The notes: generated by a model not told the origin, from the letters alone. 64,000 nt of DNA from an uncultured Candidatus Saccharibacteria bacterium (GCA_964484005.1 CAZADR010000002.1:10318-74317), one strand, 5' to 3'. Positions 16,405 to 32,369 are shown, counted from the stretch's first letter. Program-made: numbers and translations.

Positions 16405-17664
16405 CTATTTAGTTCCATCTCGCCAACCAGCCATATATTTTTTTTGAGTTTCTGTGAGTTTATCTATGGTTGTGCCTAGGCTGTGTAACTTTAGGGTGGC
16501 TATCTTTCTATCTAAAATTTCTGGCAAGACATGTACGGCGTTTGAGAGCTTCCCTTTATTTTTTAAAATATATTCTGCTGCTAAAGCTTGATTGGCAAAG
16601 CTCATGTCCATCACCGAGGCAGGGTGCCCCTCTGCACTACCGAGATTTACGAGTCTGCCACCAGCGAGCACAAAGATAGTTTTTCCATTCTTCATGGTAT
16701 AGGCCTCTACAAAGTCTCGCAAAGTTTTTTTGTTTTTCGTCATTTTTTGAAGTGAAACTAAATCAATCTCTACATCAAAGTGTCCAGAGTTTGAAATAAC
16801 ACAACCATCTTTTATATTGTGAAACGTTTCACTTCCGACGACACTTGTGTTTCCTGTGACGGTACAGATAAAGTCTGCAATTTTTGCCGCATCCGTCATC
16901 GGCATCACCCTGAAGCCATCTAGGAGCGCCTCGATGGCTTTGATTGAATCTATTTCTGTGACTATAACATTTGCCCCCATGCCTCGGGCCCGCATCGCTA
17001 GGCCTTTACCACACCACCCATAACCAGCGACTACAAAGACAGAGCCCGCAATTAATTTATTGGTAGCACGAATTATTCCGTCCAAAGTAGATTGTCCTGT
17101 GCCGTAGCGGTTGTCGAAAAAGTGCTTTGTCATAGAATCATTTACTGCGACGACGGGGAAGAGAAGTGTGCCTTCTTTTTCCATAGATTTTAATCTAGAG
17201 ACTCCGGTGGTGGTCTCTTCTGTGCCACCGATTATTTTTTGTATTTGATTTTGTTTCTTAGTGTGAAGTTCCCCCACAAGGTCTGCGCCATCATCCATGG
17301 TCATGCTTGGATTCATATCCAACACATTGTGCAAGTGCTCAAAATATTCTTTTTTACTTTCTCCCTTTTTTGCGAAGACTGGAATACCAAAATTTTTCAC
17401 CAAGGCTGCCGCCACATCATCTTGAGTGGAGAGAGGGTTTGAGGCACAGAGACCGACAGTGGCCCCGCCCTCTTTGAGGGCGATCATAAGGTTTGCCGTC
17501 TCGGCAGTAACATGTAAGCAGGCTCCGATGGTGACCCCCTTGAAAGGCTTTGATTTTTTAAAGTCGGCCGAGATGCCGGAGAGGACAGGCATATCTCGTT
17601 TGGCCCACTCTATCTTAATCAGGCCCTTTGGAGCTAGATTTATATCTTTTATGTTATGTTTCAT
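16405..17664 (-). CDS. ahcY: Adenosylhomocysteinase
   Basis: NAD-binding GYGWCGKGLAMRARGMGANVIVTEIDSIKA and overall SAH hydrolase architecture; 419 aa. Confidence 0.9.
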   Translation of the reverse strand: MKHNIKDINLAPKGLIKIEWAKRDMPVLSGISADFKKSKPFKGVTIGACLHVTAETANLMIALKEGGATVGLCASNPLSTQDDVAAALVKNFGIPVFAKKGESKKEYFEHLHNVLDMNPSMTMDDGADLVGELHTKKQNQIQKIIGGTEETTTGVSRLKSMEKEGTLLFPVVAVNDSMTKHFFDNRYGTGQSTLDGIIRATNKLIAGSVFVVAGYGWCGKGLAMRARGMGANVIVTEIDSIKAIEALLDGFRVMPMTDAAKIADFICTVTGNTSVVGSETFHNIKDGCVISNSGHFDVEIDLVSLQKMTKNKKTLRDFVEAYTMKNGKTIFVLAGGRLVNLGSAEGHPASVMDMSFANQALAAEYILKNKGKLSNAVHVLPEILDRKIATLKLHSLGTTIDKLTETQKKYMAGWRDGTK

Positions 17665-17928
17665 GTTTCTATCTTAACATAAAAATCTAGATACTTGCCT
17701 CTAAAAATTAACATGGTATTATAATTCAAAATCAATGAGTGAAACGAATATGATTTTCTTTACCCTGTGAAATATTTTGAGTACAAAAAGAACATTTGTA
17801 TAAAATAGGTAAAAGAAGACCATTGAGCTATAATAATGGGTATATAAATTAAATTATTAGATTAAAAGACAAATGTTATTTCACGGGGTGGCGATTTATA
17901 TAGTCGCTTCGCTCCCTATAAATCAACC

Positions 17929-18285
17929 ATGTTAGACAAGAAAAAAATTAAAGAAAAATTAGAAAAAGAAAGAGACGATTTACTAGAACAAATGAAAGGC
18001 ATGGGCAAGCTTAATGCCGAGACAGGTGAATGGGAAACAATTCCAGAAGAAATTGATTTTCCAGAGTCAGATGAAAATGACAAAGCCGACAGGTTTGAAG
18101 ACTTTGAAGCTAGGAGCTCTATGATGCGAACCTTGGAGCCAAGATTAAAAAATATTTTGAAAGCACTCAAAGGACTCAGTCGAGATTCTTTTGGTAAATG
18201 TGAAGTTTGCAAAAAAGATATTGAGATGACCCGTCTAGAGGCAAACCCTGCAGCTCGAACCTGTAAGAAGCACTTAGAAGAATAA
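17929..18285 (+). CDS. DksA/TraR-family zinc-finger-like protein
   Basis: Coiled-coil N-terminus and C-terminal CEVC...TCKKH zinc-finger-like motif. Confidence 0.45.
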   Translation: MLDKKKIKEKLEKERDDLLEQMKGMGKLNAETGEWETIPEEIDFPESDENDKADRFEDFEARSSMMRTLEPRLKNILKALKGLSRDSFGKCEVCKKDIEMTRLEANPAARTCKKHLEE

Positions 18286-18291
18286 CCTAAG

Positions 18292-19842
18292 GTGGCATTT
18301 GCAAAAGTATACTCCGCGCAAGTAAGCTTACTCTCGGGAGCTATAGTAACTATCGAAGTAGACCTGTCCAGAGGACTGCATTCTTTTAGTGTCGTCGGAC
18401 TGCCTGATAAAGCGGTGGACGAATCGAAAGACAGAGTGAGTGGAGCGATAAAAAATTCTGGTTTTCAATCTCCTAAAGCCAAGAACCAAAAAATAATAGT
18501 ATCACTTTCACCGGCCGACTTAAAAAAAGAGGGGCCGTTTTTTGATTTAGCTATTGCTCTTTCTTATATGTTGGCGGCGGGGGATATAAAATTTGATTCG
18601 GAAAAGAAAATATTTTTAGGGGAACTCGGACTAGATGGCACACTACGGAGGATTCGTGGAGCTTTACCACTCGCCCAAGAAGCCAAGCGAATGGGATTTG
18701 AAGAAATATATTTACCAAAAGAAAATGCGGTGGAGGCGGCTTTGGTGGAAGGTATAAAAATATTTGGTGCTGAAAGCTTGAAAGAGGTGGTTGAACACAT
18801 AGATGAAGGCAAAAAAGAATTACAAAAACAATTAAATAAAATTTTAATTCAACCTCAGACAAAAATAAATTATAAAAAAGAAATAGCTCGGACGGACTTT
18901 GCAGATATTCGTGGACAAGAAGGTGCCAAGCGCGGGCTCGAGATAGCTGCGGCCGGCGGACACAATATCGCCATGTATGGTCCACCGGGTACAGGCAAGA
19001 CGATGCTCGCTAGAGCTTTCTCTCAGCTCTTACCAGATTTAAGTATTGAAGAAGTTTTAGAAATCACTGGCATACATTCTGTAGCGGGAAGCACTAGGGG
19101 GGAGCTCGTTTGCTTTTCTCCTTTTCGTGCTCCGCACCACACTGCTTCTTATGTTTCTATTATTGGTGGAGGAACTTTTCCAAAACCGGGAGAAGTGACT
19201 CTCGCGCACAGGGGAGTGCTTTTTCTAGATGAGTTTCCTGAATTTGAAAAAAGAGTCATCGAATCTTTGCGTCAGCCACTCGAAGACAACATTGTCTCTA
19301 TCTCTCGCGCCAAAGGCACGGCTGTGTTTCCTTCAAATTTTATTTTAGTAGCAGCAATGAATCCTTGTCCATGTGGAAACTCTGGCAACAAACAAAAAGC
19401 CTGCATCTGTAAACCTTCAGATCTAGATAGATATAAGAGAAAGCTTTCTGGGCCGATTGTGGACCGTATTGATCTCTGGGTCTCTGTCGGAAATGTGGAT
19501 TACAAGAAACTCGGGGGAGAGGGCACTGGTGAAAAAAGTGAAAAGATAAAAGAGAGGGTGACAAGGGCGCGAGAAATTCAAAAAGATAGATTTAAAAAAT
19601 TTGAAAAAGATATCAAGACGAATAGTGAAATGAATGTAAAAGATTTGGGCACCATGGTGATACTCGATGGAAAAGTAAGGGACTTACTCGATGACAGCGC
19701 TGAACGACTTTCCTTGTCTGCGAGAGCATATCATCGAGTCTTAAAGATAGCTCGCACTATTGCCGACCTAGAAAACTCTCCAAACGTAGAAGCACATCAT
19801 ATCCTAGAAGCTATACAATATAGGCCGAAAGTGAATCAGTAA
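18292..19842 (+). CDS. comM: YifB/ComM-family Mg-chelatase-like AAA+ ATPase (GTG start)
   Basis: GPPGTGKTMLARAF Walker A, LFLDEFPEF Walker B, plus Lon-like N-terminal and C-terminal domains. Confidence 0.85.
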   Translation: MAFAKVYSAQVSLLSGAIVTIEVDLSRGLHSFSVVGLPDKAVDESKDRVSGAIKNSGFQSPKAKNQKIIVSLSPADLKKEGPFFDLAIALSYMLAAGDIKFDSEKKIFLGELGLDGTLRRIRGALPLAQEAKRMGFEEIYLPKENAVEAALVEGIKIFGAESLKEVVEHIDEGKKELQKQLNKILIQPQTKINYKKEIARTDFADIRGQEGAKRGLEIAAAGGHNIAMYGPPGTGKTMLARAFSQLLPDLSIEEVLEITGIHSVAGSTRGELVCFSPFRAPHHTASYVSIIGGGTFPKPGEVTLAHRGVLFLDEFPEFEKRVIESLRQPLEDNIVSISRAKGTAVFPSNFILVAAMNPCPCGNSGNKQKACICKPSDLDRYKRKLSGPIVDRIDLWVSVGNVDYKKLGGEGTGEKSEKIKERVTRAREIQKDRFKKFEKDIKTNSEMNVKDLGTMVILDGKVRDLLDDSAERLSLSARAYHRVLKIARTIADLENSPNVEAHHILEAIQYRPKVNQ

Positions 19843-19847
19843 GTTAT

Positions 19848-20163
19848 CCCCCACACCTTTCATTTTATAACTTCAGATCATATTATTTTTTATGTATTAT
19901 TTATATATTCTAAAAAGCCTTAAAGACGAAAAATTATATGTTGGTTCGACCAATGATCTGAAGCGAAGACTTTCGGAACACAACAATGGACTTAATCGTT
20001 CAACAAAAGCAAGGCGTCCATTTGAACTTAGATATTATGAAGCTTGTACTAATGAAAGTGATGCCCGAACTAGAGAATATAACCTCAAGAAAGATGGAAA
20101 AGCACTTGGGCAGCTTAAAAGACGAATTTCCGAAAGTCTTAAATAAAATAAAAGGTGTGGGGG
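19848..20163. mobile_element. Miniature GIY-YIG element: 13-bp terminal inverted repeats CCCCCACACCTTT / AAAGGTGTGGGGG flanked by direct TTAT
   Basis: IRs at 19848-19860 and 20151-20163 enclose the 84-aa GIY-YIG ORF. A near-identical copy lies at 32023-32340. Confidence 0.5.
19892..20146 (+). CDS. Small GIY-YIG nuclease-family protein
   Basis: YLYIL..LYVGSTNDLKRRLSEHN matches the GIY-YIG (URI) domain; 84 aa. Confidence 0.75.
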   Translation: MYYLYILKSLKDEKLYVGSTNDLKRRLSEHNNGLNRSTKARRPFELRYYEACTNESDARTREYNLKKDGKALGQLKRRISESLK

Positions 20164-20181
20164 TTATCCACAGAAGGGTTG

Positions 20182-20211
20182 TTGACAGGTGAACGCTCGT
20201 TCACTTATACT
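20182..20211 (+). promoter_or_regulatory. Sigma-70-like promoter with embedded Cheo-type LexA box GAACgctcGTTC
   Basis: TTGACA (20182-20187), perfect palindrome GTGAACGCTCGTTCAC (20189-20204), then TATACT (20206-20211); it lies upstream of the DUF465-like ORF and lexA. Confidence 0.6.
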
Positions 20212-20276
20212 ATATACATAGCCAAGTCGGGCTAGATTAGTAAAACTAAATAAGAAGCATTACGCTTCGCAAATCA

Positions 20277-20477
20277 ATGTCACAATCACAATATCTAAAA
20301 ATGTTAGAAAGGGAGATACAAAAGATTAATAAAAAAATTGATCTTAAGATTCTCCAAGGTGAGAAATATATCAAAGAGGCGAGAGAGCACAAACTCCTCT
20401 TAAAGAAGGTCCGCTATCATACTAGGAGAAACTTCTTTAGCAAATTTTTCCCAACTTTCACAAAATTTTCTTTCTAA
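20277..20477 (+). CDS. Small coiled-coil protein (DUF465/YdcH-like)
   Basis: 66 aa; MLEREIQKINKKIDLKIL..EAREHKLLLKK pattern. Lies immediately upstream of lexA. Confidence 0.35.
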   Translation: MSQSQYLKMLEREIQKINKKIDLKILQGEKYIKEAREHKLLLKKVRYHTRRNFFSKFFPTFTKFSF

Positions 20478-20480
20478 AAC

Positions 20481-21059
20481 ATGCAGACTATTTACCAGAC
20501 AAAACTAGAATCTTTCTACGGGCAAAATAAAAGGATGCCTTCTTATACAGAGATGATGAAGCTCTTTGGTTTTAAATCCAAGAATGCCGTATTTAGAGTC
20601 GTAGAAAAACTCGTTGATGCAGGGTTTGTGACAAAAGATTATTTAGGCCGACTTGTTCCCTCTGAATCTTTTACTGAGAATGCTGCGAGTGTACCCATGC
20701 TAGGTTTTGTGACTGCTGGGTTCCCAGCTACCGTAGAAGAAGAGCTAGCTGATACTGTAAACCTCGATGATCTTTTAATAAAAAATAAACCTCTTACATA
20801 CATGCTCGAAGTAGATGGGGACTCTATGATAGATGCGCACATAGAAAAGGGCGACATGGTACTCGTAGAAAAGACAAACAGTGCCAAAGACGGAGACATC
20901 ATTATAGCTGAGGTAGACGGAGAGTTTACCATGAAGTATTTCAAAAAAAGTGGAAATAAAGTTTGGCTCGAACCCGCAAACAAAAAATATCAACCAATAT
21001 ACCCCGCGCACTCTTTAAATATAAATGCAGTCGTAAAAGCTGTAATAAGGAGATACTAA
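20481..21059 (+). CDS. lexA: LexA repressor (S24 peptidase family)
   Basis: N-terminal wHTH, Ala-Gly cleavage region VTAGFP, S24 catalytic GDSM and a Lys in the VLVEK motif. Confidence 0.85.
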   Translation: MQTIYQTKLESFYGQNKRMPSYTEMMKLFGFKSKNAVFRVVEKLVDAGFVTKDYLGRLVPSESFTENAASVPMLGFVTAGFPATVEEELADTVNLDDLLIKNKPLTYMLEVDGDSMIDAHIEKGDMVLVEKTNSAKDGDIIIAEVDGEFTMKYFKKSGNKVWLEPANKKYQPIYPAHSLNINAVVKAVIRRY

Positions 21060-21187
21060 AAATAAATTTTTTTCTCAGTATAATCTTATATCAGCACACA
21101 TAATTTTTTGCTAAAAATTTGCTCTGCTCGGCTACCCGCCTGCGCAAGGCTTCTCTAAGATTACACTTTCAACAAAATTTCTTCTAA

Positions 21188-21226
21188 AATAAAAAATCCC
21201 CACTGAAGGGGATTTTTTATTTTTTA
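21188..21226. terminator. Bidirectional rho-independent terminator between lexA and hup
   Basis: AAAAAATCCCC-ACTGAA-GGGGATTTTTTATTTTTT. Confidence 0.7.
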
Positions 21227-21239
21227 TCTCGAGATAAAA

Positions 21240-21512
21240 TTACGCAACCATATCTTTCAAACCTTTTGCAGGTCGGAATTTTGGAACTCTTTTTGCAGCT
21301 ACTTTGACTTGTTCTCCAGTCTTTGGATTGCGAGCCATGCGAGCAGCACGAGATTTTACGGAAAAGATTCCGAAGCCGGCGATTGAAACTTCACCTCCTT
21401 TTTTCAAAGTCTGGATGATAGCATCAAACATTCCGTCTACGATTTCTTCAGCTTGTACTTTTGTACCACCTAGTTTTCCGTGTACCCATTCAGCTAATGC
21501 TTGTTTATTCAT
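21240..21512 (-). CDS. hup: HU family DNA-binding protein
   Basis: GFGIFSVKSRAARMARNPKTGEQVKVAAKRVPKFRPAKGLKD is the classic HU arm; 90 aa. Confidence 0.9.
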   Translation of the reverse strand: MNKQALAEWVHGKLGGTKVQAEEIVDGMFDAIIQTLKKGGEVSIAGFGIFSVKSRAARMARNPKTGEQVKVAAKRVPKFRPAKGLKDMVA

Positions 21513-21635
21513 ATTTTTTTTAAATTATTTTTTATAATTCTTTCGACCTGCCTCGCTTTAGCGTGGCTAGTTGTCCTTATAATTACTACCAATGTAGCCT
21601 CTATCCATTATATATCAAGGGTTTTTTAAGGCAAG

Positions 21636-23162
21636 CTATCTAGCGTATTCGATAATTCGAGTTTCTCGTATCATTGTCACCTTTATTTCTCCTGGATATT
21701 TGAGTTCTTGCTCAATTTTTATAGCAATATCTCGAGCCATAAGCTTGGCTTCGGCATCAGAAATCTTTTCAGGGGTGACAAAGATGCGTATTTCACGTCC
21801 AGCTTGCAGGGCATAAGACTTTTCGACAGCAGGGAAGCCGTTTACTAGGGCTTCTAGCTCTTGTAGGCGTTTTAAGTAGTTCTCTACTGAGTCTCGGCGG
21901 GCACCTGGGCGGCCTCCAGATATAGCATCTGCAGTCTGAACAATGATGGATTCTATGGTTTCATAAGGGTAGTCCTCGTGGTGAGATTTCATTGCGGTGA
22001 CGATGCGTTCGTCAGCCCCAAATTTTTGCAAAATGCGCATTCCTATCTCAATGTGGGTACCTTGTACTTCGTGGTCTAGGGCTTTACCTATGTCGTGAAC
22101 GAGGGCTCCTGCTTTGGCTATAGCTACATCTGCACCCAATTCTTCGGCTATCATTCCAGCGATGTGAGACATCTCTATTGAGTGCTGAAGAACATTTTGT
22201 CCATAACTGGTTCGGAAATACAATCTTCCGATGATTGCTACTATGCGAGGATCAAAGTTGAAGATTCCACACTCGTAGACAGCTTGTTCTCCCTTTTCTT
22301 TGATTATCTTGTTTATTTCTTCTTTGGCTTTTTCTACCAATTCTTCAATCTTTGCAGGTTGAATGCGTCCATCTAGAATCAAGTTTTCCAAAGCAAGTCT
22401 TGCTACTTGTCTTCTGATTGGGTCGAAAGAAGAAATGACGATTGAGCCCGGTGTGTCATCCACGATGAGCTCTACTCCGGCTGCTCTCTCAAAGGCTCGG
22501 ATGTTTCTTCCTTCTTTTCCGATTATCTTTCCTTTGATTTCATTGTTAGGAATAGATACGACGGTGGTCATGAGCTCGGAGGCTGTACTAGAAGCTAAGC
22601 GTTGTATGGAGGTAGCCAAAATATCTTTAGCACGTCGGTCCAACTTTTCTTCATTACTATTTTCTAGTTTTTGTATCTTTACCAAGATGTCTTCCTCGTA
22701 TCTTTTTTCGACATCTCTCAAGAGCTCATTTTTTGCTTCTTCTGCAGTGAGCTTGGCAATTTTTTCTAATTCAAGAACTTTTTCTTCTTCAATTTTTACT
22801 ACCTTTTCCTGAATCTTTTTTATTTCTTCCACTTTGAGTTTGATATTTTCAACTTCTTTGTTTACCTCCACCTGACGCGCATCTAAAAACTCGTCTTTTT
22901 TGATGAGTCTTTTTTCTGTTTCTTTAAACTCTATTTCTTTCTCTTTTTCCTCTTCTCTTAGCTTTCCTAGTTTTTCTTCCGATATCTTTTTTGCTTCATC
23001 TAATATTCTTTGTGCTTCTTCCTTGGCCCCCACCATCATCTGCTTGATGTCTATCTCAATAGACCTTCTCTTTCCAAGCGCGACGATAAGTCGGAGATAG
23101 TATCCGATACCTACGCCTAAAAGGAGTACTCCGACTCCGATTAAAATTATTATTATACTCAT
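21636..23162 (-). CDS. rny: Ribonuclease Y
   Basis: N-terminal TM helix, coiled coil, KH domain (GKIIGKEGRNIRAFE) and HD domain (HSIEMSHIAGMIAEELG..HDIGK). Confidence 0.9.
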   Translation of the reverse strand: MSIIIILIGVGVLLLGVGIGYYLRLIVALGKRRSIEIDIKQMMVGAKEEAQRILDEAKKISEEKLGKLREEEKEKEIEFKETEKRLIKKDEFLDARQVEVNKEVENIKLKVEEIKKIQEKVVKIEEEKVLELEKIAKLTAEEAKNELLRDVEKRYEEDILVKIQKLENSNEEKLDRRAKDILATSIQRLASSTASELMTTVVSIPNNEIKGKIIGKEGRNIRAFERAAGVELIVDDTPGSIVISSFDPIRRQVARLALENLILDGRIQPAKIEELVEKAKEEINKIIKEKGEQAVYECGIFNFDPRIVAIIGRLYFRTSYGQNVLQHSIEMSHIAGMIAEELGADVAIAKAGALVHDIGKALDHEVQGTHIEIGMRILQKFGADERIVTAMKSHHEDYPYETIESIIVQTADAISGGRPGARRDSVENYLKRLQELEALVNGFPAVEKSYALQAGREIRIFVTPEKISDAEAKLMARDIAIKIEQELKYPGEIKVTMIRETRIIEYAR

Positions 23163-23371
23163 AAGCTTGTGTCAGCTTACAAGAACAAGCCACTATATTT
23201 GCTGTTTTTCTTTCCTAAAACTTAAGATTTGAAAAATTTCCTTTAAACATTTCATAATATATGGGATATTCCTGTGAACCAGACTTTAAATTAAGAAAAT
23301 AAATTTGTAAATTTCAACATCTAAAGTATAACAGAAAGAAATTTTTCTGTCTAGGGCGACTCGCGGTGGGG

Positions 23372-23977
23372 TTATTCTTCCTTTTTTGGGCCTGGGTTTT
23401 TGGACTTTGTGACTATTTCGTCTACAATTCCGTATTTCTTGGCTTCATCTGCATCCATAAAGAAGTCTCTCTCTACGTCTTTTTCTATTTGAGGTAAAGA
23501 TTTGCCAGTGTTTTTAGCTAAAAGTTTATTTAAATTATCTCTAGTTTTTAAGATATGCTTTGCTGTGATGGCGATATCTGTGGCTTGACCTTCTACTCCA
23601 CCCAAAGGTTGATGTATCATCACTTCAGCATTTGGTAAAATAAATCTCTTTCCCTTTTTTCCTGCAGATAAGATAATTGCAGCACCCGAAGCAGCTAAGC
23701 CAACACAAAAAGTGGCTATGTCTGGGCGGACATGATTCATGGTATCTACTATGGCCATAGTAGAGGTGACTGAGCCACCAGGGGAGTTTACATAAAGATA
23801 AACATCTTTTTTAGCATCTTCAGACTCCAAAAAGAGAAGCTGGGCGATGACAATGTTTGCAGTGTGGTCATCTATTGGGCCACCTAGGAATATAATTCGT
23901 TCGCGTAAAAGACGAGAATAAATATCGTAAGCTCTTTCTCCAAACTGACTTTTCTCAATAACTGTTGGTATTAACAT
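23372..23977 (-). CDS. clpP: ATP-dependent Clp protease proteolytic subunit
   Basis: GLAASGAA (catalytic Ser), MIHQP (His), and overall ClpP pattern; 201 aa. Confidence 0.9.
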
Positions 23978-24023
23978 AATAGTATTATATTCTTGATTTT
24001 CAGCTTTTTCAAGCTGAGAAAAA

Positions 24024-25109
24024 CTATTGAGTTTCCAAGAATTGGAAGATTTTTTCGTTAGTTAGAACATTTTCTGCATGCATGCGGGCTCGCTCGGGGT
24101 CTGCATCTTTGTAATGTTCCAATATTGCAGCTACCTCAGTAGCTACTTGTTCGTCATCGGCTTTAATATTTTCAACTTTTGCTATCTCGTTTAAGATAAG
24201 CGCTAGTTTTGCTTTCTTTTCTGCGTCATTTCTAAATTCTTTTCTTAAATCTTCAACTTTTTTGTTTATGTGTTTTAAGTAATCTTCAAAATTTAGACCC
24301 ATTGCGGTGATATCTGCTTCCATTTTGTATAAGATTTTGTCTAGCTCTACTTCAATTAAGATTTCAGGAACTTCGACTTCACTTTCATCGATTATTTTTT
24401 CGATTATTTTTAATCGGGTTTTTTCTTTCACTTGATTTCCTTTTTCTAGTTTAATATTTTCTTTTAGTTTTTCTCTAAAATCAGCTACATCTTTGAAGGG
24501 CCCGAGAGCTTGCACAAAATCATCATTGAATTCTGGGAGCTCTGGTTTTATTTCTTCTCCTGTCTCTTCGGCAGGCAGGTCTTTGTGTTCTTCGCCCTCC
24601 TTGTGTTCATGTGGCTCTGCCATGTGTATTTTGGGTGCACGAGATTTGCGGATATCCATTATAGTATTTTCAACATCTTCTTCGGATACAGTTGTATCCT
24701 TTTCAGCTTCAGTAAGTTTTGAGATTATTTTTTTTGCTGTTTCTTTATAGACAGGAAGTTTTATTTCAGGCAAGACAGCTGTTTTTATTTTGAATCCGAG
24801 GGGATTGTTGCGAGCCAGCTTAGTGATAGCAATTTCTGGTCGGCTGATAGCGTCAATTTTTTCATCTTCAAGAATTTTAGGGTAATGCTCGTTGATAGCC
24901 AATTGAGTCATTTCTTCTAAAATGCTGATTTCTGGTACTTTTGAGAGTAAAACACTTTCTGGTACTTTACCTTTTCTAAAACCATCCAATTCTACATTCT
25001 CTCCAATTTTCTTTAATGCTTTTGCAAAGTAAGTTTCAAAAACCTCAGAATCTATTTCTCCTTCGATTTCCACCTCACTTTTAGGTAATTTTTTTACTGT
25101 TATTTTCAT
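24024..25109 (-). CDS. tig: Trigger factor (short form)
   Basis: [21 protein letters not shown]-terminal ribosome-binding domain and C-terminal chaperone arm; 361 aa. Confidence 0.75.
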
Positions 25110-25218
25110 CCCGGTACTTAAATTTTAATTAATAATCTTCATCTTTATGTCCTATAATCAAAAATTTACTACGGGACACGTAGATTTTCAGTTTATATTT
25201 ATTTGGGTTCTTTGTCAA

Positions 25219-25262
25219 AAGCCCCTCCGGCGTTTCCGCAGGAGGGGCTTTTGTTCTTTTAT
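25219..25262. terminator. Rho-independent terminator hairpin
   Basis: AAAAGCCCCTCC-GGCGTTTCCGCA-GGAGGGGCTTTTGTTCTTTT. Confidence 0.6.
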
Positions 25263-25274
25263 AGAGAGTTGTAT

Positions 25275-25493
25275 TTACTCTATAGTATTTACATCTACAC
25301 CTATATCAGTTTCTAGTGTGTTTAAATCCTGATCAAGTGCTTCTACTCCGTTTTCATCTTCAGTAGTGAGAACATCAACAGGTTCTTCTACGTTAACCTT
25401 TGATTGCCAAGCATATATACCACCAATGATAAGGATGATGACTATGATTACCAACCCTATGAATGCTCCATTTGATTTTTTTTCTGGTTCCAT
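25275..25493 (-). CDS. Small single-pass membrane protein
   Basis: 72 aa with TM helix FIGLVIIVIILIIGGIYAW; sits upstream of the acidic secreted protein. Confidence 0.35.
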   Translation of the reverse strand: MEPEKKSNGAFIGLVIIVIILIIGGIYAWQSKVNVEEPVDVLTTEDENGVEALDQDLNTLETDIGVDVNTIE

Positions 25494-25513
25494 ATTTTTT
25501 TAGTTAATAGCTA

Positions 25514-26374
25514 TTAATTGTTGTTGTCATCACTTTCATCGTCATTGTCATCTTCTGTAGTATTTTTGAGATCTTCAAGCATGGCTTTGATCTCTTCTCT
25601 TAGAGATTTTACTGCATCCTTTAATGATTTGTGTGCTTCTACTATCAAGGTTTGAGTCTCTTGAGCCAAAGTCCTTAGTTTTGTTTTATCTTCTAAGGTA
25701 AGTTTCTCAATAGAAATAGCTAACAATGTGTTTATTTCAGCAATTTTTGTTTTAGCACTTTCTAGTTTTGTCTCTGCTGTGTTTACAAAAGCCTCAGCTT
25801 CTGTGGTGTCTACTCCCTTTGCATCTAGCTTAGTTATTTGTGCCTCGATTTTATCTTTGAAGCCGTTCATTCTTTCTACTGCGGCATCAAACCTTTCCAA
25901 AGCTTTTTCTCTACCTACTATTCTATCTTCTTTTATTTTTGCTTGAGCTGCATCTTTCTCTGTTTTAATTTTTTCTCTCAAAGCTTCCATTTTTTGCTTT
26001 GCCTCTTCACGAACAGCTTCTATTTGTTTCTTTATTTCTTCTCTCTTTGCCTCAAATATTCTTTTTTGCTCTTCTCTTTGAGCTTTTTCTAAAGAGGTTT
26101 CTTCGCTGTCATCGTCACTATCTTCATCTTCATCACTATCATCATTTAGATCTTCATCACTATCGTCATCAAGGTCTTCGTCTTCATCTTCGTCTAAATC
26201 TTCATCATTATCATCATCTCCAGACAAAGAATCGTTATCATCATTGTCATCGTCTGATGATTCGATTTTTACATCGTCAGATGAATCATCGTTACCTTCT
26301 CTTGCTTGAACCATTCTGTTTCCCAAGAAAAGTATCATCAGGAAAATCACAAACAATCCTAAATATTTTTTCAT
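25514..26374 (-). CDS. Secreted highly acidic (D/E-rich) coiled-coil protein
   Basis: Signal peptide, roughly 80 aa of Asp/Glu/Ser low-complexity sequence, then a Lys/Glu coiled coil; the DNA at 26100-26290 is an imperfect GA(T/C)-rich repeat. Confidence 0.5.
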   Translation of the reverse strand: MKKYLGLFVIFLMILFLGNRMVQAREGNDDSSDDVKIESSDDDNDDNDSLSGDDDNDEDLDEDEDEDLDDDSDEDLNDDSDEDEDSDDDSEETSLEKAQREEQKRIFEAKREEIKKQIEAVREEAKQKMEALREKIKTEKDAAQAKIKEDRIVGREKALERFDAAVERMNGFKDKIEAQITKLDAKGVDTTEAEAFVNTAETKLESAKTKIAEINTLLAISIEKLTLEDKTKLRTLAQETQTLIVEAHKSLKDAVKSLREEIKAMLEDLKNTTEDDNDDESDDNNN

Positions 26375-26443
26375 ATCTTTTTTATTTCGCTTATTTAAGC
26401 GAGTTATTAAATTAATAATACAACTTATAAACCGACAAGTGTA

Positions 26444-28456
26444 TTATACCAAAAAAGCAACCAAAAGTAATGCAACAATGTTGAGAATCTTTATCATTGG
26501 GTTTATGGCTGGTCCCGCTGTGTCTTTATAGGGGTCTCCTACGGTATCCCCAGTAACTGCAGCCTTATGGGCATCAGAGCCTTTGCCTCCGTGATTACCT
26601 TGTTCTATGTGTTTTTTAGCATTATCCCAAGCACCTCCTCCGGATGTCATTGAAATAGCTACGAACAAACCTGTAATGATGGAGCCAAGAAGTAGCCCTC
26701 CCAAGACCACCAAGCCGTTTTCTTTTCCAAAAGCTAAAATTACCAAGATTGGAGCGAGTACGGGAATCAAAGCGGGAAGAATCATTTGTTTGATTGCAGC
26801 TCCGGTGATGATAGACACAGCTTTTGCATAATCAGGCTTTGCGGTGCCTTCCATAATTCCTTTTATTTCTCTAAATTGTCGGCGAATTTCTTCTACGACT
26901 TCTCCTGCTGTTTTTCCAACTGCTTCCATGCAAAGTGCAGCAAAATAATATGGCAAGAGTCCTCCCAAGAAGAGACCAACGATGACATAAGGATCACTCA
27001 AATCAAAAGCAATACTTTTTCCAGCCTTAGCAATTTCTTCGGTATAAGAAGCAAAGAGGACGAGCGCAGCGAGTCCTGCGGAGCCGATAGCGTAACCTTT
27101 AGTGACGGCTTTGGTGGTATTTCCAACAGCGTCTAATGGATCAGTGATGTCTCGTACAGCTTGAGGAAGCTCTGCCATTTCGGCGATACCTCCTGCATTA
27201 TCTGTAATAGGTCCATAGGCATCTATCGCTACTATTATTCCAGTCATTGAAAGCATAGACATAGCTGCGACAGCGATACCATAAAGTCCGCCGTATTCAT
27301 AACTAATTAAAATTCCAAGCACAATCGTGATAAGAGGAAGAGCGGTAGACTTCATTGATATCGCCAAACCTTGAATTACATTTGTGCCGTGTCCAGAGAC
27401 TGAAGCAAGAGCAATAGATTTTACGGGAGCGTATTTTGTAGAAGTAAAATATTCGGTGATGACTACGAGGGCTCCGGTGACAAAAAGTCCGACAAGAGAA
27501 CAAATAAATAAATCCATCACTTCATATTTTCCATTTCCTTCCATCAATATCTTTGTGACAGGGTAGAAGAGGGCTCCAGCGATGACGCCAGAAGCAATAA
27601 GTCCTTTGTAGAGAGCGCCCATTATATTTTTCTCTTTTCCTAAACGAACAAACCAAGTACCGATGATGGATGCAAAGATTGCCATACCACCGATGACGAG
27701 GGGATAAATAACTGCATTTTCAAATCTAGTAAAAAGAAGAGAGCCGAGGAGCATAGTAGCTACTGAGGTGACAGCATAAGTTTCAAATAAATCTGCTGCC
27801 ATACCTGCGCAGTCTCCCACATTGTCTCCCACATTGTCTGCGATAACTCCAGGATTTCTTGGGTCGTCTTCGGGGATTCCAGCTTCGAGTTTACCTACTA
27901 AATCTGCTCCGACATCGGCTGCTTTGGTAAAGATTCCTCCACCGAGTCTAGCGAAAACAGAAATGAGAGATGCTCCAAATCCGAGCCCGATGAGAGCAGT
28001 CACATCTTTGGTGATTGCATAAAAAGCTGTGACCCCAAGGAGAGCGAGGCCGACTACGAGAAGTCCGGTAACTGTTCCTCCTTGAAAAGCGAGAGACAGT
28101 GCTTCGTTGATTCCTTTTCTAGCAGCTTCAGTGGTTCGGACGTTGGCGCGGACAGAGACATTCATGCCGATATATCCAGCAAGAGCAGAGAAAACTGCTC
28201 CAACCAAGAAACCAAAAGCCATAGTCCAGCCTAGTTTTTCAACCATACCGATAATTAGAAAAAGAACCAAAGCTATAATGCCGATTGTTTTGTATTGTTT
28301 ATTTAAATAAGCACTTGCACCGTCTTGGATAGCTTTGGCTATCTCTTGCATGCGAGCATTGCCTGGGCTTTTCTTTAAGATAGATTTTGCTAAAAACAAA
28401 CCATAAAAAATAGCTACAAAAGAACTTACGATTGCAAACAATAAAAATGAATTCAT
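26444..28456 (-). CDS. hppA: Membrane-bound proton/sodium-translocating pyrophosphatase
   Basis: [40 protein letters not shown] motifs; 670 aa polytopic. Confidence 0.9.
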
Positions 28457-28495
28457 AAATGATTTTTAACGAACATTGTGAGTATAAAAATCTTT

Positions 28496-28558
28496 ACCCC
28501 GTTAAATATAAAATCTTTAGATTTTTAATTTTGCTTTGCAAAATTTATTTAATGGGGT
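28496..28558. repeat. Short palindromic element (ACCCCGTTAAATA ... TATTTAATGGGGT)
   Basis: 13-bp imperfect inverted repeat around a 36-bp spacer that contains AATCTTTAGATTT; member of a family (see 17752-17889, 29830-29894, 29945-30231). Confidence 0.5.
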
Positions 28559-28602
28559 TAGTAAAATATATTCGCTATGCTCATTATTGTTACTAATAAT
28601 TT

Positions 28603-29793
28603 TTATTCTTCTTTGACCTCTACTTTTTCTCCATCAGTGCTGGCTACTTCTTTGCCATCACCTTTGATATCTATTCTCCATCCTGTCAATTTTGCAGCGA
28701 GACGAACATTTTGTCCACCCTTGCCGATAGCGAGAGAGAGCTGGTCATTGCCTACTTCTACTGTCGCTTTGTGTTCTTTTTCATCTATTTCAATTGAAAC
28801 AACTTTGGCCGGAGAAAGAGAATTTGATACAAAGACTTTTGGGTCTTCGGACCAAGGAATTATATCTATTTTTTCACCTGAAAGTTCTCCAGTAATAGTA
28901 TTTACTCTGGTTCCTTTTTGTCCAACACAAGAACCCACCGCATCGATGTGTTCATCGTTTGAAAAAACGGCTATCTTTGAACGAGCGCCCGCTTCGCGAG
29001 CGACTGATTTTATTTCCACAACTTCGCTCTCTATCTCAGGAGCTTCCATTGCAAAAAGTTTCTCTATAAATTTTGGATGAGTGCGTGAAAGACGCAAGTT
29101 TATTCCTCTTGGTGTGTCTTCTACGCTGTAGAGATATGCGCGGATACGCTGACTGCGTTGCCAATATTCTCCTGGAATTTGTTCTTCGGCAGGGAGGATA
29201 CCGGTAGCTCTGTTGAAATCAACATAAATATTTCCGCGTTCTACTTTTTGTACGATTCCAGAAATAATTTCGCCTTCTTTGGTTCCATATTCATCTATGA
29301 TAGAAGTGCGTTCTGCTTCACGAATCTTTTGGATGATGACTTGCTTTGCAGTCTGAGCGGCGATGCGTCCATAATCGTCTTTGGCTTCAAGAGGAAAAAT
29401 GATTTCATCATTGAGCTCTGCCCCCTTTTTTATTTTTTTTGCGTCTTCTAAAAGAATGTGATGTTCGGGGTTGAAGTGCACGCGTTCATCGCCATCATCT
29501 TTGATAGAGTATTCCACTTCTTTTATGTTTTTTTTGTGACCGACAGTTTCTTCTTCAACAGGTTCATCCATGATAGCGATACTTTCATCTACCACAATTT
29601 TTACCTGATAGAAATCTGTCGCACCGGTTTCCATATCAAATTTTGAACGGATTATTTGTCCTTTCTTGCCGTAATCTTTTTTGTAAGCGGCCGCCATGGC
29701 TTGTTCGATGGCTTCCAATATTTTTTCTTTTGGTATTTTTCTCTCTTCTTCTAGTTGCTCTAGTGCTGATTTGAATGTTTTTATATCTAACAT
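28603..29793 (-). CDS. nusA: Transcription termination/antitermination factor NusA
   Basis: MLDIKTFKSALEQLEEERKIPKEKILEAIEQA N-terminus, S1 and two KH domains; 396 aa. Confidence 0.85.
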   Translation of the reverse strand: MLDIKTFKSALEQLEEERKIPKEKILEAIEQAMAAAYKKDYGKKGQIIRSKFDMETGATDFYQVKIVVDESIAIMDEPVEEETVGHKKNIKEVEYSIKDDGDERVHFNPEHHILLEDAKKIKKGAELNDEIIFPLEAKDDYGRIAAQTAKQVIIQKIREAERTSIIDEYGTKEGEIISGIVQKVERGNIYVDFNRATGILPAEEQIPGEYWQRSQRIRAYLYSVEDTPRGINLRLSRTHPKFIEKLFAMEAPEIESEVVEIKSVAREAGARSKIAVFSNDEHIDAVGSCVGQKGTRVNTITGELSGEKIDIIPWSEDPKVFVSNSLSPAKVVSIEIDEKEHKATVEVGNDQLSLAIGKGGQNVRLAAKLTGWRIDIKGDGKEVASTDGEKVEVKEE

Positions 29794-29829
29794 AATGATT
29801 TTTAAGGAATGTAATGACTATAAAAATCA

Positions 29830-29894
29830 TTACCCTGTGAAATGAAATCTTTCAGATTTCAGCTTTTTCGAAGAAAAAGTTATTTCACTGGGGT
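29830..29894. repeat. Short palindromic element (TACCCTGTGAAAT ... ATTTCACTGGGG) with internal hairpin
   Basis: Terminal IRs of 11-12 bp with an inner AGCTTTTTCGAAGAAAAAGT hairpin; same family as 28496-28558 and 17752-17889. Confidence 0.5.
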
Positions 29895-29942
29895 TGTAAA
29901 CTTACAACCACTTCTCTTGTTAATTAATTTATAAACAAATTA

Positions 29943-30221
29943 TTACCCTGTTAAATATGATTTGAGCCGATTTCGCAAAAACTGTTTTCCGTATGTTGTC
30001 TTTAGATATTCTTCACGATGCATTGCATCATGTTTATCTAAACAAGCTTCGGAATAAATCAGTTCTAATGGCCTTCGATCTTTTGTTGAACTAACTTGAC
30101 CTTTGCAATGTTGCTCAAATCTAGATTTCAAATCATTCGTATATCCGACATATAGTTTTTTGTCTTTTTGGGACTTTAAAACATATATGTAGTAAAACTT
30201 TTTTATTTGATTTGAAATCAT
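29943..30221 (-). CDS. Small GIY-YIG nuclease-family protein
   Basis: YYIYVLKS..KLYVGYTNDLKSRFEQH is a GIY-YIG domain; 92 aa; divergent paralog of 19892..20146. Confidence 0.7.
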   Translation of the reverse strand: MISNQIKKFYYIYVLKSQKDKKLYVGYTNDLKSRFEQHCKGQVSSTKDRRPLELIYSEACLDKHDAMHREEYLKTTYGKQFLRNRLKSYLTG

Positions 30222-30231
30222 TTAACAGGGT
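29945..30231. mobile_element. Miniature GIY-YIG element with 12-bp terminal IRs ACCCTGTTAAAT / ATTTAACAGGGT
   Basis: IRs at 29945-29956 and 30220-30231 exactly bracket the 92-aa GIY-YIG ORF; the IR sequence is related to the ORF-less palindromic elements nearby. Confidence 0.5.
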
Positions 30232-30520
30232 TTAAAAAAATATAATCGCTTTGCTTCTTATTTTTTTAAAAATAAAAGCCCTGTTTCTGACAGGACTCAT
30301 ATATAAGGAGCATAGCACAAAGCTTGTTTTAATGCAATGGACTAGGTTTGACAAAAAGGGGAAAGTATTGCTAAGATGTGTATAACAAGGGTTCCTTAAC
30401 AACTAACCCCCAAGTCCTATTGATTTTATTGTCTTTTGGGTCAATAAAGTTAAATGAAAGTTCTGGATGAACTTTCAACCTAAGATACAATAGAAAATAT
30501 GGGCAAGAAAGGAGGTAGTT

Positions 30521-30724
30521 ATGACTGAAAAGCATTGGGTGAATGAAGACCATTACCGCACCGTCTCAAGTGACGGCAAGACATCTTACCTCTTCAAGGA
30601 CGACGGAGGATCCTTCTTCACCGATACGTGCGTGGAAGTCACAGACCATCACAGTGATGGGACGACCGATGCGTACGAACCCGACAACTCCCTTTTCAGC
30701 GATGGAAAGGGAGATCACAAGTAG
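30521..30724 (+). CDS. Small acidic hypothetical protein, GC-rich
   Basis: 67-aa ORF with AGGAGG SD 6 nt upstream, a TTGACA-N18-TAAGAT promoter about 150 nt upstream, and a terminator hairpin at 30755-30790; GC is clearly above the local background. Confidence 0.4.
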   Translation: MTEKHWVNEDHYRTVSSDGKTSYLFKDDGGSFFTDTCVEVTDHHSDGTTDAYEPDNSLFSDGKGDHK

Positions 30725-30793
30725 TAGGCTTTCGGAAGATGGCCTACACATAAAGGTGGTTCATTCGTGAGCCACCTTTATTTTTATTAAACT

Positions 30794-31342
30794 TCAGAAG
30801 TTGTAAACATAAAGTTTTTTATTTTTTTGCCAATTAGGTAATCCTGTTTCTAAAATCTTATCAGGTTTTCTTTTTGAAAATTCAAAATCGCAAGAAACAA
30901 CTCTTGAGCCAACTTTTAATTCTTTTTCAAATTTAGGAAGAAGTTTATCCATAGCTTCTGGAAAAAGATATAAAAAAATATGAGAAGCTTCAGAAATATT
31001 AGTTTTATAAAAATTTCCATATAAGATATAAATATTTTTTGAAGAATTTAACAGTTTTTTTATTTTTGCAAGCATAAATGGAAAAGGGGAAATTTCAACG
31101 CCAATACAGGAGATATTGGGATTTGATTTTAATGCTTCTAAAAGAACTCGCCCGTCTCCACACCCTAGGTCATAGAGAGTACTATCCTCTTTTAATTCTA
31201 GTGCTGAAACAATTTTATTTAAAACCTCTTTTCGTACAGGTACAAATGGTATTAGTGAAAAAAGTGGAGTGATAAGGAAAAGGAGGGCAGAAAGAAAAAT
31301 TAAAAGCAACAGAAAGAGCAATAAGTAAGATAAAATTATCAT
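30794..31342 (-). CDS. Class I SAM-dependent methyltransferase with N-terminal TM anchor
   Basis: Motif I LYDLGCGDGRVLLEA; hydrophobic N-terminus. Confidence 0.6.
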   Translation of the reverse strand: MIILSYLLLFLLLLIFLSALLFLITPLFSLIPFVPVRKEVLNKIVSALELKEDSTLYDLGCGDGRVLLEALKSNPNISCIGVEISPFPFMLAKIKKLLNSSKNIYILYGNFYKTNISEASHIFLYLFPEAMDKLLPKFEKELKVGSRVVSCDFEFSKRKPDKILETGLPNWQKNKKLYVYNF

Positions 31343-31372
31343 AAAAGCATAATAACATATTTTTGTTTGTTT

Positions 31373-31606
31373 CTAACGAGAAATCCAGGTATTTGTCGGA
31401 ATACCAGATTGTAATATTATACCTTTCATTGTTCTTGGCTTAATAGACAAACTACCGTGCCTGGGAACACAAACTTGTTTCATGATTTTATTTATATGAC
31501 CCACATAATAGTAGTGACTTCCTTTTATATAATTTAAACGAAAGTTGTGTTCTTTTAGAAAAGTTTCTACATCTCTAAATGTCCAATTGAGAATACCTCT
31601 TGGCAT
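31373..31606 (-). CDS. hicA: HicA-family mRNA interferase toxin
   Basis: FLKEHNFRLNYIKGSHYYY...VPRHG..L...MKGIILQSGI matches the HicA pattern (KGSH motif); 77 aa. Confidence 0.6.
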   Translation of the reverse strand: MPRGILNWTFRDVETFLKEHNFRLNYIKGSHYYYVGHINKIMKQVCVPRHGSLSIKPRTMKGIILQSGIPTNTWISR

Positions 31607-31612
31607 ATGTTG

Positions 31613-31939
31613 TTATATATTAACGACTCCATAATATCGTATTTCATCATATGGAGATTTGATAGGCTTCTTGCTCTCTATCAATTTTTTCCAAAGCTTT
31701 TCGTATTCTTCGTCTGCTTTTTGATTTAAAGGTGAAACTCGAGAACCTTTTATTTTAGCTTGAGATTCTACATAACCTTGAATAGCTTCCAATAGATTAT
31801 TTTGTGCGACATAAGCATCATCGGAAGATTCTACAATATTAAATTCCAGAGCCACAGCATACCATGTGTCTTTTTCTCTAAAAACTATAGTTCTAACTGA
31901 GCCTTTTTGTATTGTATTCATACAATGACATGGTACCAC
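31613..31939 (-). CDS. hicB: HicB-like antitoxin (UPF0150 fold); probable start at internal Met (31921)
   Basis: FREKDTWYAVALEFNIVESSDDAYVAQNNLLEAIQGYVE resembles the HicB N-domain; ends 7 nt before hicA. Confidence 0.45.
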   Translation of the reverse strand: MVPCHCMNTIQKGSVRTIVFREKDTWYAVALEFNIVESSDDAYVAQNNLLEAIQGYVESQAKIKGSRVSPLNQKADEEYEKLWKKLIESKKPIKSPYDEIRYYGVVNI

Positions 31940-32022
31940 ATAAATATTTTAAATGCTAAATATGCTTGTTCAAATACAAAAATTACCCCCAAACCCCATA
32001 TTTTGCTGGTTTTAAAGGTTAT

Positions 32023-32340
32023 CCCCCACACCTTTCGTTTTATACCCTTAAATCATATAATGGCTGTTATGTATTACATGTATGTTCTAAAAAGTCTTAA
32101 AGATGAGAAATTATATATTGGTTCTACTGATGATTTAAGGCGAAGACTTTCGGAACACAACAAGGGACTTAATCGTTCAACTAAAGCAAGACGTCCATTT
32201 GAACTTCGTTACTATGAGGCTTGTGCTGACGAACGTGATGCTAGAACAAGGGAATATAATTTAAAAAAAGATGGAAAAGCGCTTGGGCAACTTAAACGAA
32301 GAATCTCCGAAAGTCTTAAATAAAACAAAAGGTGTGGGGG
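32023..32340. mobile_element. Miniature GIY-YIG element (second copy of 19848..20163 type)
   Basis: IR CCCCCACACCTTT at 32023-32035 and AAAGGTGTGGGGG at 32328-32340, both with TTAT immediately outside; encloses a near-identical GIY-YIG ORF. Confidence 0.5.
32060..32323 (+). CDS. Small GIY-YIG nuclease-family protein
   Basis: Product nearly identical to 19892..20146 (MYYMYVLKSLKDEKLYIGSTDDLRRRLSEHN...); the track ORF 31907 start is too early and the real start is 32060 or 32069. Confidence 0.7.
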   Translation: MAVMYYMYVLKSLKDEKLYIGSTDDLRRRLSEHNKGLNRSTKARRPFELRYYEACADERDARTREYNLKKDGKALGQLKRRISESLK

Positions 32341-32369
32341 TTATTCACAGGATGTTCACAGTTCACTTG

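Follow-up and report, generated by a model that had tools for sequence, protein, structure and literature searches.

Small GIY-YIG nucleases that are encoded beside their own recognition repeats have been described recently. The Ssn proteins are single-domain GIY-YIG nucleases of 94 amino acids that cut single-stranded DNA (ssDNA) beside a hairpin repeat; this repeat flanks their own gene and is scattered genome-wide, with hundreds of NTS/SRM copies per genome (Chenal et al. 2025, Nat Commun, PMC11893778). SsnA of Neisseria acts on transforming DNA, and the NTS-ssnA-NTS layout was called 'identical to' that of an insertion sequence, a mobile origin being only hypothesised (PMC11893778). The stretch of DNA analysed here, 64,000 nucleotides from an uncultured Candidatus Saccharibacteria bacterium (hereafter the window, in which all positions are counted; its GC content is low, 36.7%, and its affinity within Patescibacteria is Nomurabacteria/Paceibacterota-like), contains three elements of about 0.3 kb in which inverted repeats bracket a small GIY-YIG gene: element 1 (19848-20163), element 2 (32023-32340) and element 3 (29945-30231). 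They are a variant of this recently described kind, small GIY-YIG nuclease with cognate repeats, here with direct evidence of insertion. All three are real insertions and have miniature relatives that lack the open reading frame (ORF); they are candidates for the smallest self-contained mobile elements known.

The likeness to Ssn extends to several features. In both cases the protein is a single GIY-YIG domain of about 90 residues without a DNA-binding domain, the gene is bracketed by an inverted-repeat sequence, and the motif also occurs in extra copies without an ORF; the catalytic Tyr/Tyr/Glu are spaced almost identically (Y6/Y17/E64 versus Y5/Y16/E62). The window elements differ in that their repeats are two arms of one repeat enclosing the gene, whereas Ssn genes are accompanied by two separate local hairpins, and in their low copy number within the 64 kb. 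The SRM consensus HGTCWY...RNCYNB has 0 matches on both strands of the window (shuffle mean 0.12). Target duplication, empty sites and target preference are demonstrated for the window elements, while mobility was hypothesised for Ssn, and Patescibacteria are not mentioned in that report (PMC11893778). An earlier note on this stretch, made from the sequence alone, had called the architecture non-standard for an insertion sequence. With the description of NTS-ssnA-NTS in 2025 the arrangement is no longer unprecedented (PMC11893778).

How do the elements compare with other mobile DNA? With insertion sequences and miniature inverted-repeat transposable elements (MITEs) they share terminal inverted repeats, short target duplications, preferred targets, and autonomous and ORF-less copies with common ends. 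Unlike in insertion sequences, however, the sole protein is a hydrolytic GIY-YIG nuclease and not a DDE, HUH, serine or tyrosine enzyme. IS200 is about 0.7 kb long; elements of about 0.3 kb are less than half that. In REP/BIME-RAYT and IS200/IS605 systems, too, hairpin-forming repeats flank a small nuclease gene and are dispersed between other genes, and recognition is structure-specific, as is presumed for the window elements; the protein fold is unrelated (HUH Y1), and IS200/IS605 is not known to make a target duplication. Very small palindromic insertions include the Rickettsia palindromic elements, a part of them in frame within coding sequences, the Correia elements of Neisseria, and the mycobacteriophage MPME elements, which have a length of about 440 bp, 11-bp repeats and a single small ORF. 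To our knowledge, no mobilising enzyme is known for any of these. By contrast, full-length copies in the window encode a candidate enzyme, and the elements are smaller still. I-TevI and Seg endonucleases have in common with them the GIY-YIG catalytic fold, selfish behaviour and the repeated occupation of one site; the window elements differ in having no C-terminal DNA-binding domain or intron, and in their target duplications, many unrelated sites and ORF-less derivatives. GIY-YIG ORFs have also been reported in rRNA genes of the Candidate Phyla Radiation, in insertions that are neither introns nor in keeping with homing (PMC11270868). Possibly these insertions are the same elements. In the literature we found no description of bacterial GIY-YIG elements with terminal repeats and target duplications.

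Elements 1 (316 bp) and 2 (318 bp) are composed as follows.

19844-19847: left TTAT target duplication of element 1; a single TTAT at empty orthologous sites
19848-19868, plus strand: left terminal inverted repeat of element 1, CCCCCACACCTTTCATTTTAT, with one conserved C/A mismatch to the right arm
19892-20146, plus strand: ORF of element 1, a single-domain GIY-YIG nuclease of 84 amino acids
20143-20163, plus strand: right terminal inverted repeat of element 1, ATAAAATAAAAGGTGTGGGGG, overlapping the stop codon
20164-20172, plus strand: right TTAT and remaining host target, TTATCCACA, matching the DnaA-box consensus
32019-32022: left TTAT of element 2
32023-32043, plus strand: left terminal inverted repeat of element 2, CCCCCACACCTTTCGTTTTAT
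32069-32323, plus strand: ORF of element 2, a GIY-YIG nuclease of 84 amino acids
32320-32340, plus strand: right terminal inverted repeat of element 2, ATAAAACAAAAGGTGTGGGGG
32341-32349, plus strand: right TTAT and flank of element 2; reconstructed target TTATTCACA

The 13-bp inverted repeats that had been reported for both elements are exact (CCCCCACACCTTT at 19848-19860 and 32023-32035 on the plus strand, 20151-20163 and 32328-32340 on the minus strand), and they are longer than reported, the terminal repeats reaching 21 nt. A further exact copy of the 13-mer lies at 41690 on the plus strand. Allowing up to 2 mismatches, 5 matches are observed in the window against 0.92 expected, and 0 of 100 shuffles reach 5. 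A repeat finder, which includes flank bases, returns arms of 24 nt with 92% complementarity for the two elements, and each of the four ends is directly bordered by TTAT. About 290 nt separate the two arms of an element. DNA identity between the elements is 84.6% inside (316/318 bp) and falls to the random level of 41-52% in the flanks; the boundary of similarity is sharp. Synonymous divergence (dS) is 0.8, yet the outer 13 nt are identical in all four arms. Within the arms one A:T pair of one element is replaced by a compensatory G:C pair in the other (CATTTTAT/ATAAAATA versus CGTTTTAT/ATAAAACA, read from the alignment). Both ORFs do encode 84 amino acids, but to call them nearly identical, as had been done, was an overstatement at 89% protein identity. 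A tblastn search found no GIY-YIG copy or ORF in the window beyond the three elements. ARAGORN found no tRNA in the window, and the elements have no Rfam match, either at gathering scores across all of the window or, for 17500-32600, at E up to 1.

Is the nuclease gene self-contained? A -10-like hexamer, identified by eye, precedes each ATG: TATTAT at 19881-19886, 5 nt upstream of the start codon of element 1, and TATAAT at 32056-32061, 7 nt upstream in element 2. Both are positioned downstream of the left arm. The gene thus probably has its own -10 element just upstream, and this placement, 5-7 nt before the ATG and past the left arm, suggests a self-contained gene whose transcript is possibly leaderless.

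A C/A mismatch recurs at one position in otherwise perfect repeats, at 19861/20150 in the window and in six related loci (L003, L009, L011, L017, L036 and L058); the left arm reads TTTC and the complement of the right arm TTTT. The two ends are thus systematically non-identical at one base.

The site of element 1 can be compared with its empty counterparts. A metagenome scan with the downstream LexA-like protein as query gave 80 related loci with the conserved order comM-orf66-lexA, of which 65 could be assessed. In 59 of these 65 the site is empty, with a single TTAT and an intact TTATCCACA-type box (consensus TTATYCMCA) directly upstream of the -35 of the lexA operon; the empty target reads ...AGTTATCCACAG..., whereas the window has TTAT, the 316 bp of the element and then TTATCCACA. 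In five further relatives an element occupies precisely this point, in each case between two copies of TTAT. A full-length element stands in L107 in the same orientation as in the window, with the ORF frameshifted, and in L112 and L131 with the ORF reversed; L091 and L157 carry ORF-less versions of about 134 bp. Because TTAT is single at the 59 empty sites and double at the 6 occupied ones (the window counted), it is a true 4-bp target duplication, as the earlier note had supposed. The same note had proposed the comparison and held that ancestral, fixed copies in relatives would speak against mobility; with 59 empty, 3 full-length and 2 ORF-less sites, that objection mostly falls away.

The host sequence next to this site is as follows.

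20182-20211, plus strand: promoter of the host's orf66-lexA operon (TTGACA, 18 nt, TATACT), with the SOS-type palindrome GTGAACGCTCGTTCAC inside it; outside the element, conserved in relatives

This SOS-box promoter reads TTGACA-GTGAACnnnnGTTCAC-TATACT. About 10 nt upstream of its -35 lies a perfect DnaA-box consensus, TTATCCACA, which is kept in 59 of 65 related genomes (loci L087-L166) and is the preferred insertion target. Three other perfect TTATCCACA boxes in the window (4485, 55415 and 62202) are all unoccupied. In L107 (1895-2215) a one-base insertion accounts for the frameshift in the nuclease ORF, an example of an inserted copy in decay.

The elements belong to a large family. A scan of species-representative genomes gave 552 relatives, and 80 loci were fetched. 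The 84-residue protein has 357 homologs at E < 1e-5; the best 120 of these are nearly all 84-87 amino acids long, and the source names among them are each a Patescibacteria lineage or just 'bacterium'. A near-perfect bracketing inverted repeat of 12-30 nt is present in 60 of the 80 fetched loci and in 3/3 window copies (63/83), at a threshold score of at least 11; the window copies score 12-18, against 4-9 for scrambled pairings and control GIY-YIG genes. The bracketed units measure 285-368 bp, mostly 285-340 bp. The sequence of the repeat varies among loci while its complementarity is kept (CCCCCACACCTTT, CACCCACACCTAT, GGCACCACACCAAT, GCCCCTCACATGG, CCCCGCACCTTTCC and others), and in several subfamilies the start and stop codons lie inside the repeats. 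Since repeat similarity follows protein similarity (Mantel r 0.54, p 0.001), repeats and gene descend as one unit.

Of the 63 bracketed elements, 23 have direct repeats of 4 nt in their flanks at symmetric offsets, whereas mismatched pairings predict 1.8. Further loci have 4-nt repeats at other offsets, and the GCCCCTCAC subfamily has 5-nt repeats (by eye). ORF-less copies whose ends match the local full-length element occur in 9 other fetched loci, 2 of them with clean 4-nt duplications (L006 and L009: ATAA beside TGTGGATAA, and CTCA), and the 64 kb of the window hold one CCCCCACACC-type and three ACCCYGTKAAAT-type copies. These copies span 50-135 bp, share ends, duplications and targets with full-length elements, and fold as an outer stem with two hairpins (z -4.7 to -6.1). 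Short, without an ORF, present in several copies and provided with shared ends and a target duplication, they have the attributes of MITEs.

Certain targets are preferred. The reconstructed target TTAT|CCACA, or its complement, recurs in window copy 1 and in L003, L004, L007, L011, L107 and L112; it is also the target of the ORF-less copies in L006, L091 and L157, and L131 and window copy 2 have it with one mismatch. Relative to the ORF it can stand on either side, as symmetric ends predict. A second context is the tRNA gene: 13 of the 63 bracketed elements abut one, and in such insertions the tRNA recovers its 5' (GGGGC) or 3' (GCACCA) end from the outermost bases of a repeat arm, which leaves direct repeats of 7-13 nt. 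Does the target resemble the element end in general? In a 9-mer test, 5 of 60 loci have a copy matching at least 7 of 9 positions; in a 7-mer test on loci with clean duplications the figure is 44% against 24% in the control, driven by the tRNA-end and TTATCCACACC cases. A general rule of this kind is weakly supported. Carriage by phages is represented by one weak partial match among 2.9 million viral contigs.

At twelve loci (L014, L015, L016, L018, L020, L022, L028, L038, L048, L058, L061 and L072) the element sits in the first or last few bases of the tRNA gene. The gene is left intact, its displaced end being supplied by the repeat arm, and the direct repeat resembles an att core.

What is known of the protein? 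All three window proteins match Pfam GIY-YIG (E 1e-18 to 8e-20), the match covering residues 1-71 of 84, and an AlphaFold model is one compact GIY-YIG domain (pLDDT 92.8). An alignment of homologs shows no variation at the catalytic Tyr, Tyr, Arg, His and Glu. The ratio of nonsynonymous to synonymous divergence (dN/dS) is about 0.07 between elements 1 and 2 and 0.06-0.09 in closer pairs with estimable dS, values of a nuclease under purifying selection. No Pfam or NCBIfam match to a transposase of a recognised class (DDE, HUH, serine or tyrosine) was found, the GIY-YIG gene being the only ORF; TIGR01453 (group I intron endonuclease) scores 27.8 bits, below its cut-off of 56. The best solved relatives are the UPF0213 proteins BH0048 and EF2693 (PDB 1zg2 and 1ywl; phmmer E 2.6e-5 and 1.2e-3, 34-43% identity, with 34% at E 2.6e-5) and the nuclease domain of SLX1 (TM 0.66, 2.0 A, about 30% identity), a structure-specific nuclease that cuts branched DNA. 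UPF0213/YhbQ/YazA proteins and the SLX1 domain are the best matches in sequence and fold, but yazA-type genes lie in overlapping housekeeping operons (trmNF-yazA-rsmI), and the G-x-G-A-K-Y-T motif region differs by a one-residue gap. The nearest homologs outside Patescibacteria, at 36-42% identity, are B. subtilis yazA, an Enterococcus gene and a Rhizobium phage gene; they have bracketing scores of 5-7 and no bracketing repeats, and the first two overlap operon neighbours.

Which enzyme moves these units? It is on balance probable that they form a large Patescibacteria family of miniature mobile elements whose own nuclease recognises the ends and makes the cuts. What is observed is a discrete unit, a 4-bp duplication (5 bp in one subfamily), preferred targets, insertion in both orientations and ORF-less derivatives. 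The unit, of 285-340 bp, comprises two terminal repeats of 12-30 nt enclosing only the gene for a GIY-YIG nuclease of 84-92 residues. In the proposed scheme the nuclease would recognise the ends in one of two forms, as a duplex site present twice or as a hairpin or cruciform formed by the repeats; such recognition would parallel that by Ssn, which binds a hairpin and cuts just beside it, and by the SLX1 domain with its branched DNA. It would introduce staggered cuts both at the ends and in targets that resemble them, with the joining left to repair or ligation by the host, and ORF-less copies would be moved in trans. The stronger proposal, that the 84-residue nuclease itself excises and inserts the element, and so represents a new mechanistic class of prokaryotic transposase with the smallest autonomous elements known (about 290-320 bp) and with miniature derivatives, tolerated in frame, that would alter promoters, tRNA gene ends and prepilin leaders across Patescibacteria, is put forward tentatively, as a possibility that falls somewhat short of being probable.

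Several points weigh against the nuclease-driven scheme. The role of the nuclease as mobilising enzyme is one that we infer; GIY-YIG enzymes are hydrolytic, and we know of none for strand transfer. A transposase encoded elsewhere in the genome, beyond the visible 64 kb, is conceivable. No closely related pair of strains was found that differs only by the insertion, the nearest relatives of occupied loci having 77-86% DNA identity, and with dS of 0.8 between elements 1 and 2 there are no recent duplicates among the window copies; activity can thus be placed in evolutionary time only. About half of the loci have no clean duplication. Copies of the element 3 type are without target duplications (by eye), and their positions are conserved. 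The reversed copies at one site could have arisen by inversion between the repeats and not by separate insertions. Mismatch types in 1352 repeat pairs (G:T 21, A:C 25, other 44) have no strand bias, so that recognition of a duplex and of a single-strand hairpin are favoured equally little.

If the nuclease does move the element, it would be a sixth catalytic solution to DNA transposition, and the minimum size of autonomous mobile elements would drop. The long-standing question of how tiny palindromic repeats without a known enzyme spread, such as dRS3/NTS of Neisseria, Correia elements and Rickettsia palindromic elements, would gain a testable candidate as well. The target duplications, empty sites and preferred target are data that the 2025 Ssn paper lacks. 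In the small genomes of Patescibacteria, the elements reshape the promoter of an SOS-regulator operon, prepilin leader peptides and the ends of tRNA genes. Moreover, a nuclease this small could serve as a tool, its DNA target and cut offset being defined.

Could the nuclease instead serve the host, as Ssn may do? It would then be a domesticated ssDNA nuclease with the repeat or hairpin as its recognition motif, policing incoming or replicating ssDNA, for example in natural transformation; the hairpins would spread by other means, the gene would just happen to lie within one of them, and the nuclease would have no part in movement. Ssn offers a published parallel, a single-domain GIY-YIG nuclease that has its own hairpin motif on either side and acts on transforming DNA (PMC11893778). 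Strong purifying selection and the retention of element 3 upstream of nusA across relatives are as a host function would have them, and the window encodes components of a type IV pilus. Such components are commonly tied to DNA uptake. However, the whole cassette, gene included, has been inserted, with a target duplication and an empty-site counterpart. Furthermore, the SRM consensus does not match in the window, the flanks are arms of one long-range repeat and not local hairpins, and only four ORF-less copies are present in 64 kb, compared with the hundreds per genome of NTS/SRM. We consider a host function of this kind unlikely, though it fares better than the other alternatives.

The GIY-YIG fold is the classical fold of homing endonucleases, and a homing-type cassette has to be weighed as well. 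Here the nuclease would cut an empty target such as TTATCCACA, and the occupied allele of a relative would be copied in by gene conversion. Occupation of the same site in several diverged genomes, the recurrence of a preferred target and the weak, below-cut-off match to TIGR01453 would fit. Nevertheless, homing appears quite improbable, given an 84-residue, one-domain protein without a DNA-binding domain of the I-TevI/Seg type and the presence of both orientations at one site; varied duplications, many contexts including tRNA ends, and ORF-less copies with duplications of their own are signatures of transposition.

A third alternative makes the gene a passenger: the inverted-repeat unit would be a MITE moved in trans by a transposase or an Xer-type recombinase, and the GIY-YIG gene its cargo or an invader of its loop. 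That ORF-less copies insert at the same targets, that some tRNA-adjacent insertions have direct repeats of 9-17 nt like att-type cores, and that GIY-YIG enzymes are not known to join DNA are all in keeping with this. The link between repeat and gene is family-wide, however, and repeat types go with protein types; the ORF takes up the whole element, with the start and stop codons within the repeats noted above for several subfamilies, and in the 4-kb flanks inspected, which were not checked systematically, no recurrent neighbouring transposase was seen. We regard a passenger gene as very improbable.

Lastly, that the repeats act in RNA, pairing in the transcript for mRNA stability or processing or ending it as the terminator hairpins the earlier note had allowed for, can hardly be right: the arms do covary and ORF-less copies of the element 3 type lie in 5' regions, adjoining a covarying hairpin leader, but empty sites show for elements 1 and 2 that repeats and gene arrive as one DNA insertion, the arms stand far apart with no G:U-type strand bias and are kept in 60 of 80 homolog loci, where their sequences change yet stay complementary, the likely internal -10 downstream of the left arm would leave that arm out of the element's own transcript, and Rfam gives no match.

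Nuclease-driven mobility is kept here as the more probable reading; element 3 calls for separate treatment. This element and its surroundings comprise the following features.

29945-30231, minus strand: element 3, 287 bp, with exact 12-nt repeats ACCCTGTTAAAT/ATTTAACAGGGT at 29945-29956 and 30220-30231
17762-17889, plus strand: ORF-less element A, with ends of the element 3 type (ACCCTGTGAAAT ... ATTTCACGGGGT)
28496-28558, minus strand: ORF-less element B, with ends of the element 3 type; stem and two hairpins, z -5.9
29832-29894, minus strand: ORF-less element C, with ends of the element 3 type, between element 3 and nusA; also at the orthologous place in L168 and L172
29794-29831, minus strand: conserved hairpin leader of about 40 nt (GATTTTTATA ... 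TTAAAAATC), from the right repeat arm to the nusA start codon
17890-17928, plus strand: the same leader module of about 40 nt
28457-28495, minus strand: the same leader module of about 40 nt

The divergent third copy with its different 12-bp repeat is thus as the earlier note had it. Its ORF (29943-30221, minus strand) encodes a GIY-YIG protein of 92 amino acids, 59% identical to those of elements 1 and 2 over 66 residues, and has its start and stop codons inside the repeats. The subfamily has 624 homologs at E < 1e-10, and members from other genomes keep the ACCCTGTTAAAT repeats. In the window and in 4/4 relatives looked up (P0243, P0252, P0264 and P0297; 80-92% protein identity) the element lies directly upstream of nusA; because it holds the same place in every one of them, it looks old or fixed there. 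A clean empty site was not found: L003 has nusA without the element, but its upstream region is unalignable. The earlier description of small mobile elements is supported, with presence and absence at the site of element 1, and element 3 differs in part. In other genomes, a 75%-identical member of the element 3 subfamily lies between comM and the lexA operon.

Convergent pairs of ends of the element 3 type number 4 in the window against 0.19 expected, and the ends of the ORF-less copies match element 3 beyond the repeat (by eye). The leader module next to them has the layout GATTTTTATA-loop-TTAAAAATC-ATTT-ATG, its stem covaries (variant GATTTATA/TATAAATC), and it has no Rfam match. It joins ACCCYGTKAAAT-type hairpins to the starts of four unrelated genes or operons (a dksA-like gene, H+-PPase, nusA and the lexA operon) and is also present in L168, L172, L176 and L178. 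The module could be a portable or co-opted promoter or 5' leader, or a leader typical of the lineage. Element 3 and its miniature relatives look like an older group, fused to a leader that runs into the start codons of housekeeping genes and maybe co-opted.

The ORF-less elements upstream of nusA (29832-29894 in the window, 1530-1640 in both L168 and L172) share the outer stem, while the two inner hairpins are wholly different; in L172 the outer stem has a double compensatory change. This pattern implies that different family members have replaced one another or that selection acts only on shape.

A further ORF-less copy lies in a protein-coding gene.

41686-41743, plus strand: ORF-less element of 50 nt (41690-41739) with a TTTA duplication on each side (41686-41689 and 41740-41743)

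It sits in frame in the leader of a PilV-like prepilin ORF (41653-42189) and folds as an outer stem with two hairpins (z -4.7). Its removal restores KKSG|FMAVEILV in the leader, and the closest full-length prepilin ortholog (P0121, locus L083) has KKSG|FMAVEILV, one TTTA and no element. In L085 the same ORF-less element is flanked by TTCA on both sides, which suggests a separate insertion.

The prepilin leader (41653-41745 in the window) is an insertion hotspot. Among orthologs (P0124, P0126, P0127, P0129, P0131, P0133, P0141, P0155, P0162, P0181, P0186, P0205, P0208 and P0217), at least 4 different in-frame inserts immediately precede the G|F cleavage motif, namely TPTPFxKKGVSLQSRRGF, ARPNRYAKRCGRGF, ACPQSLKHGFCRRGF and THTPKFGVTSKGGGF. 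At the DNA level, two of the inserts are hairpin elements of the CCCACACC type.

The neighbourhood of element 2 has features of its own, noted by eye. Upstream, at 31373-31939 on the minus strand, two small ORFs resemble a toxin-antitoxin pair of the HicA/HicB type. Downstream, at 32478-33687, a radical-SAM-like ORF of 365 amino acids overlaps a small ORF that ends in a Cys/Asp-rich tail, ...GDCDCSPDTDDCSNPNDCDCDCAP; the two may be a maturase and the precursor of a modified peptide.

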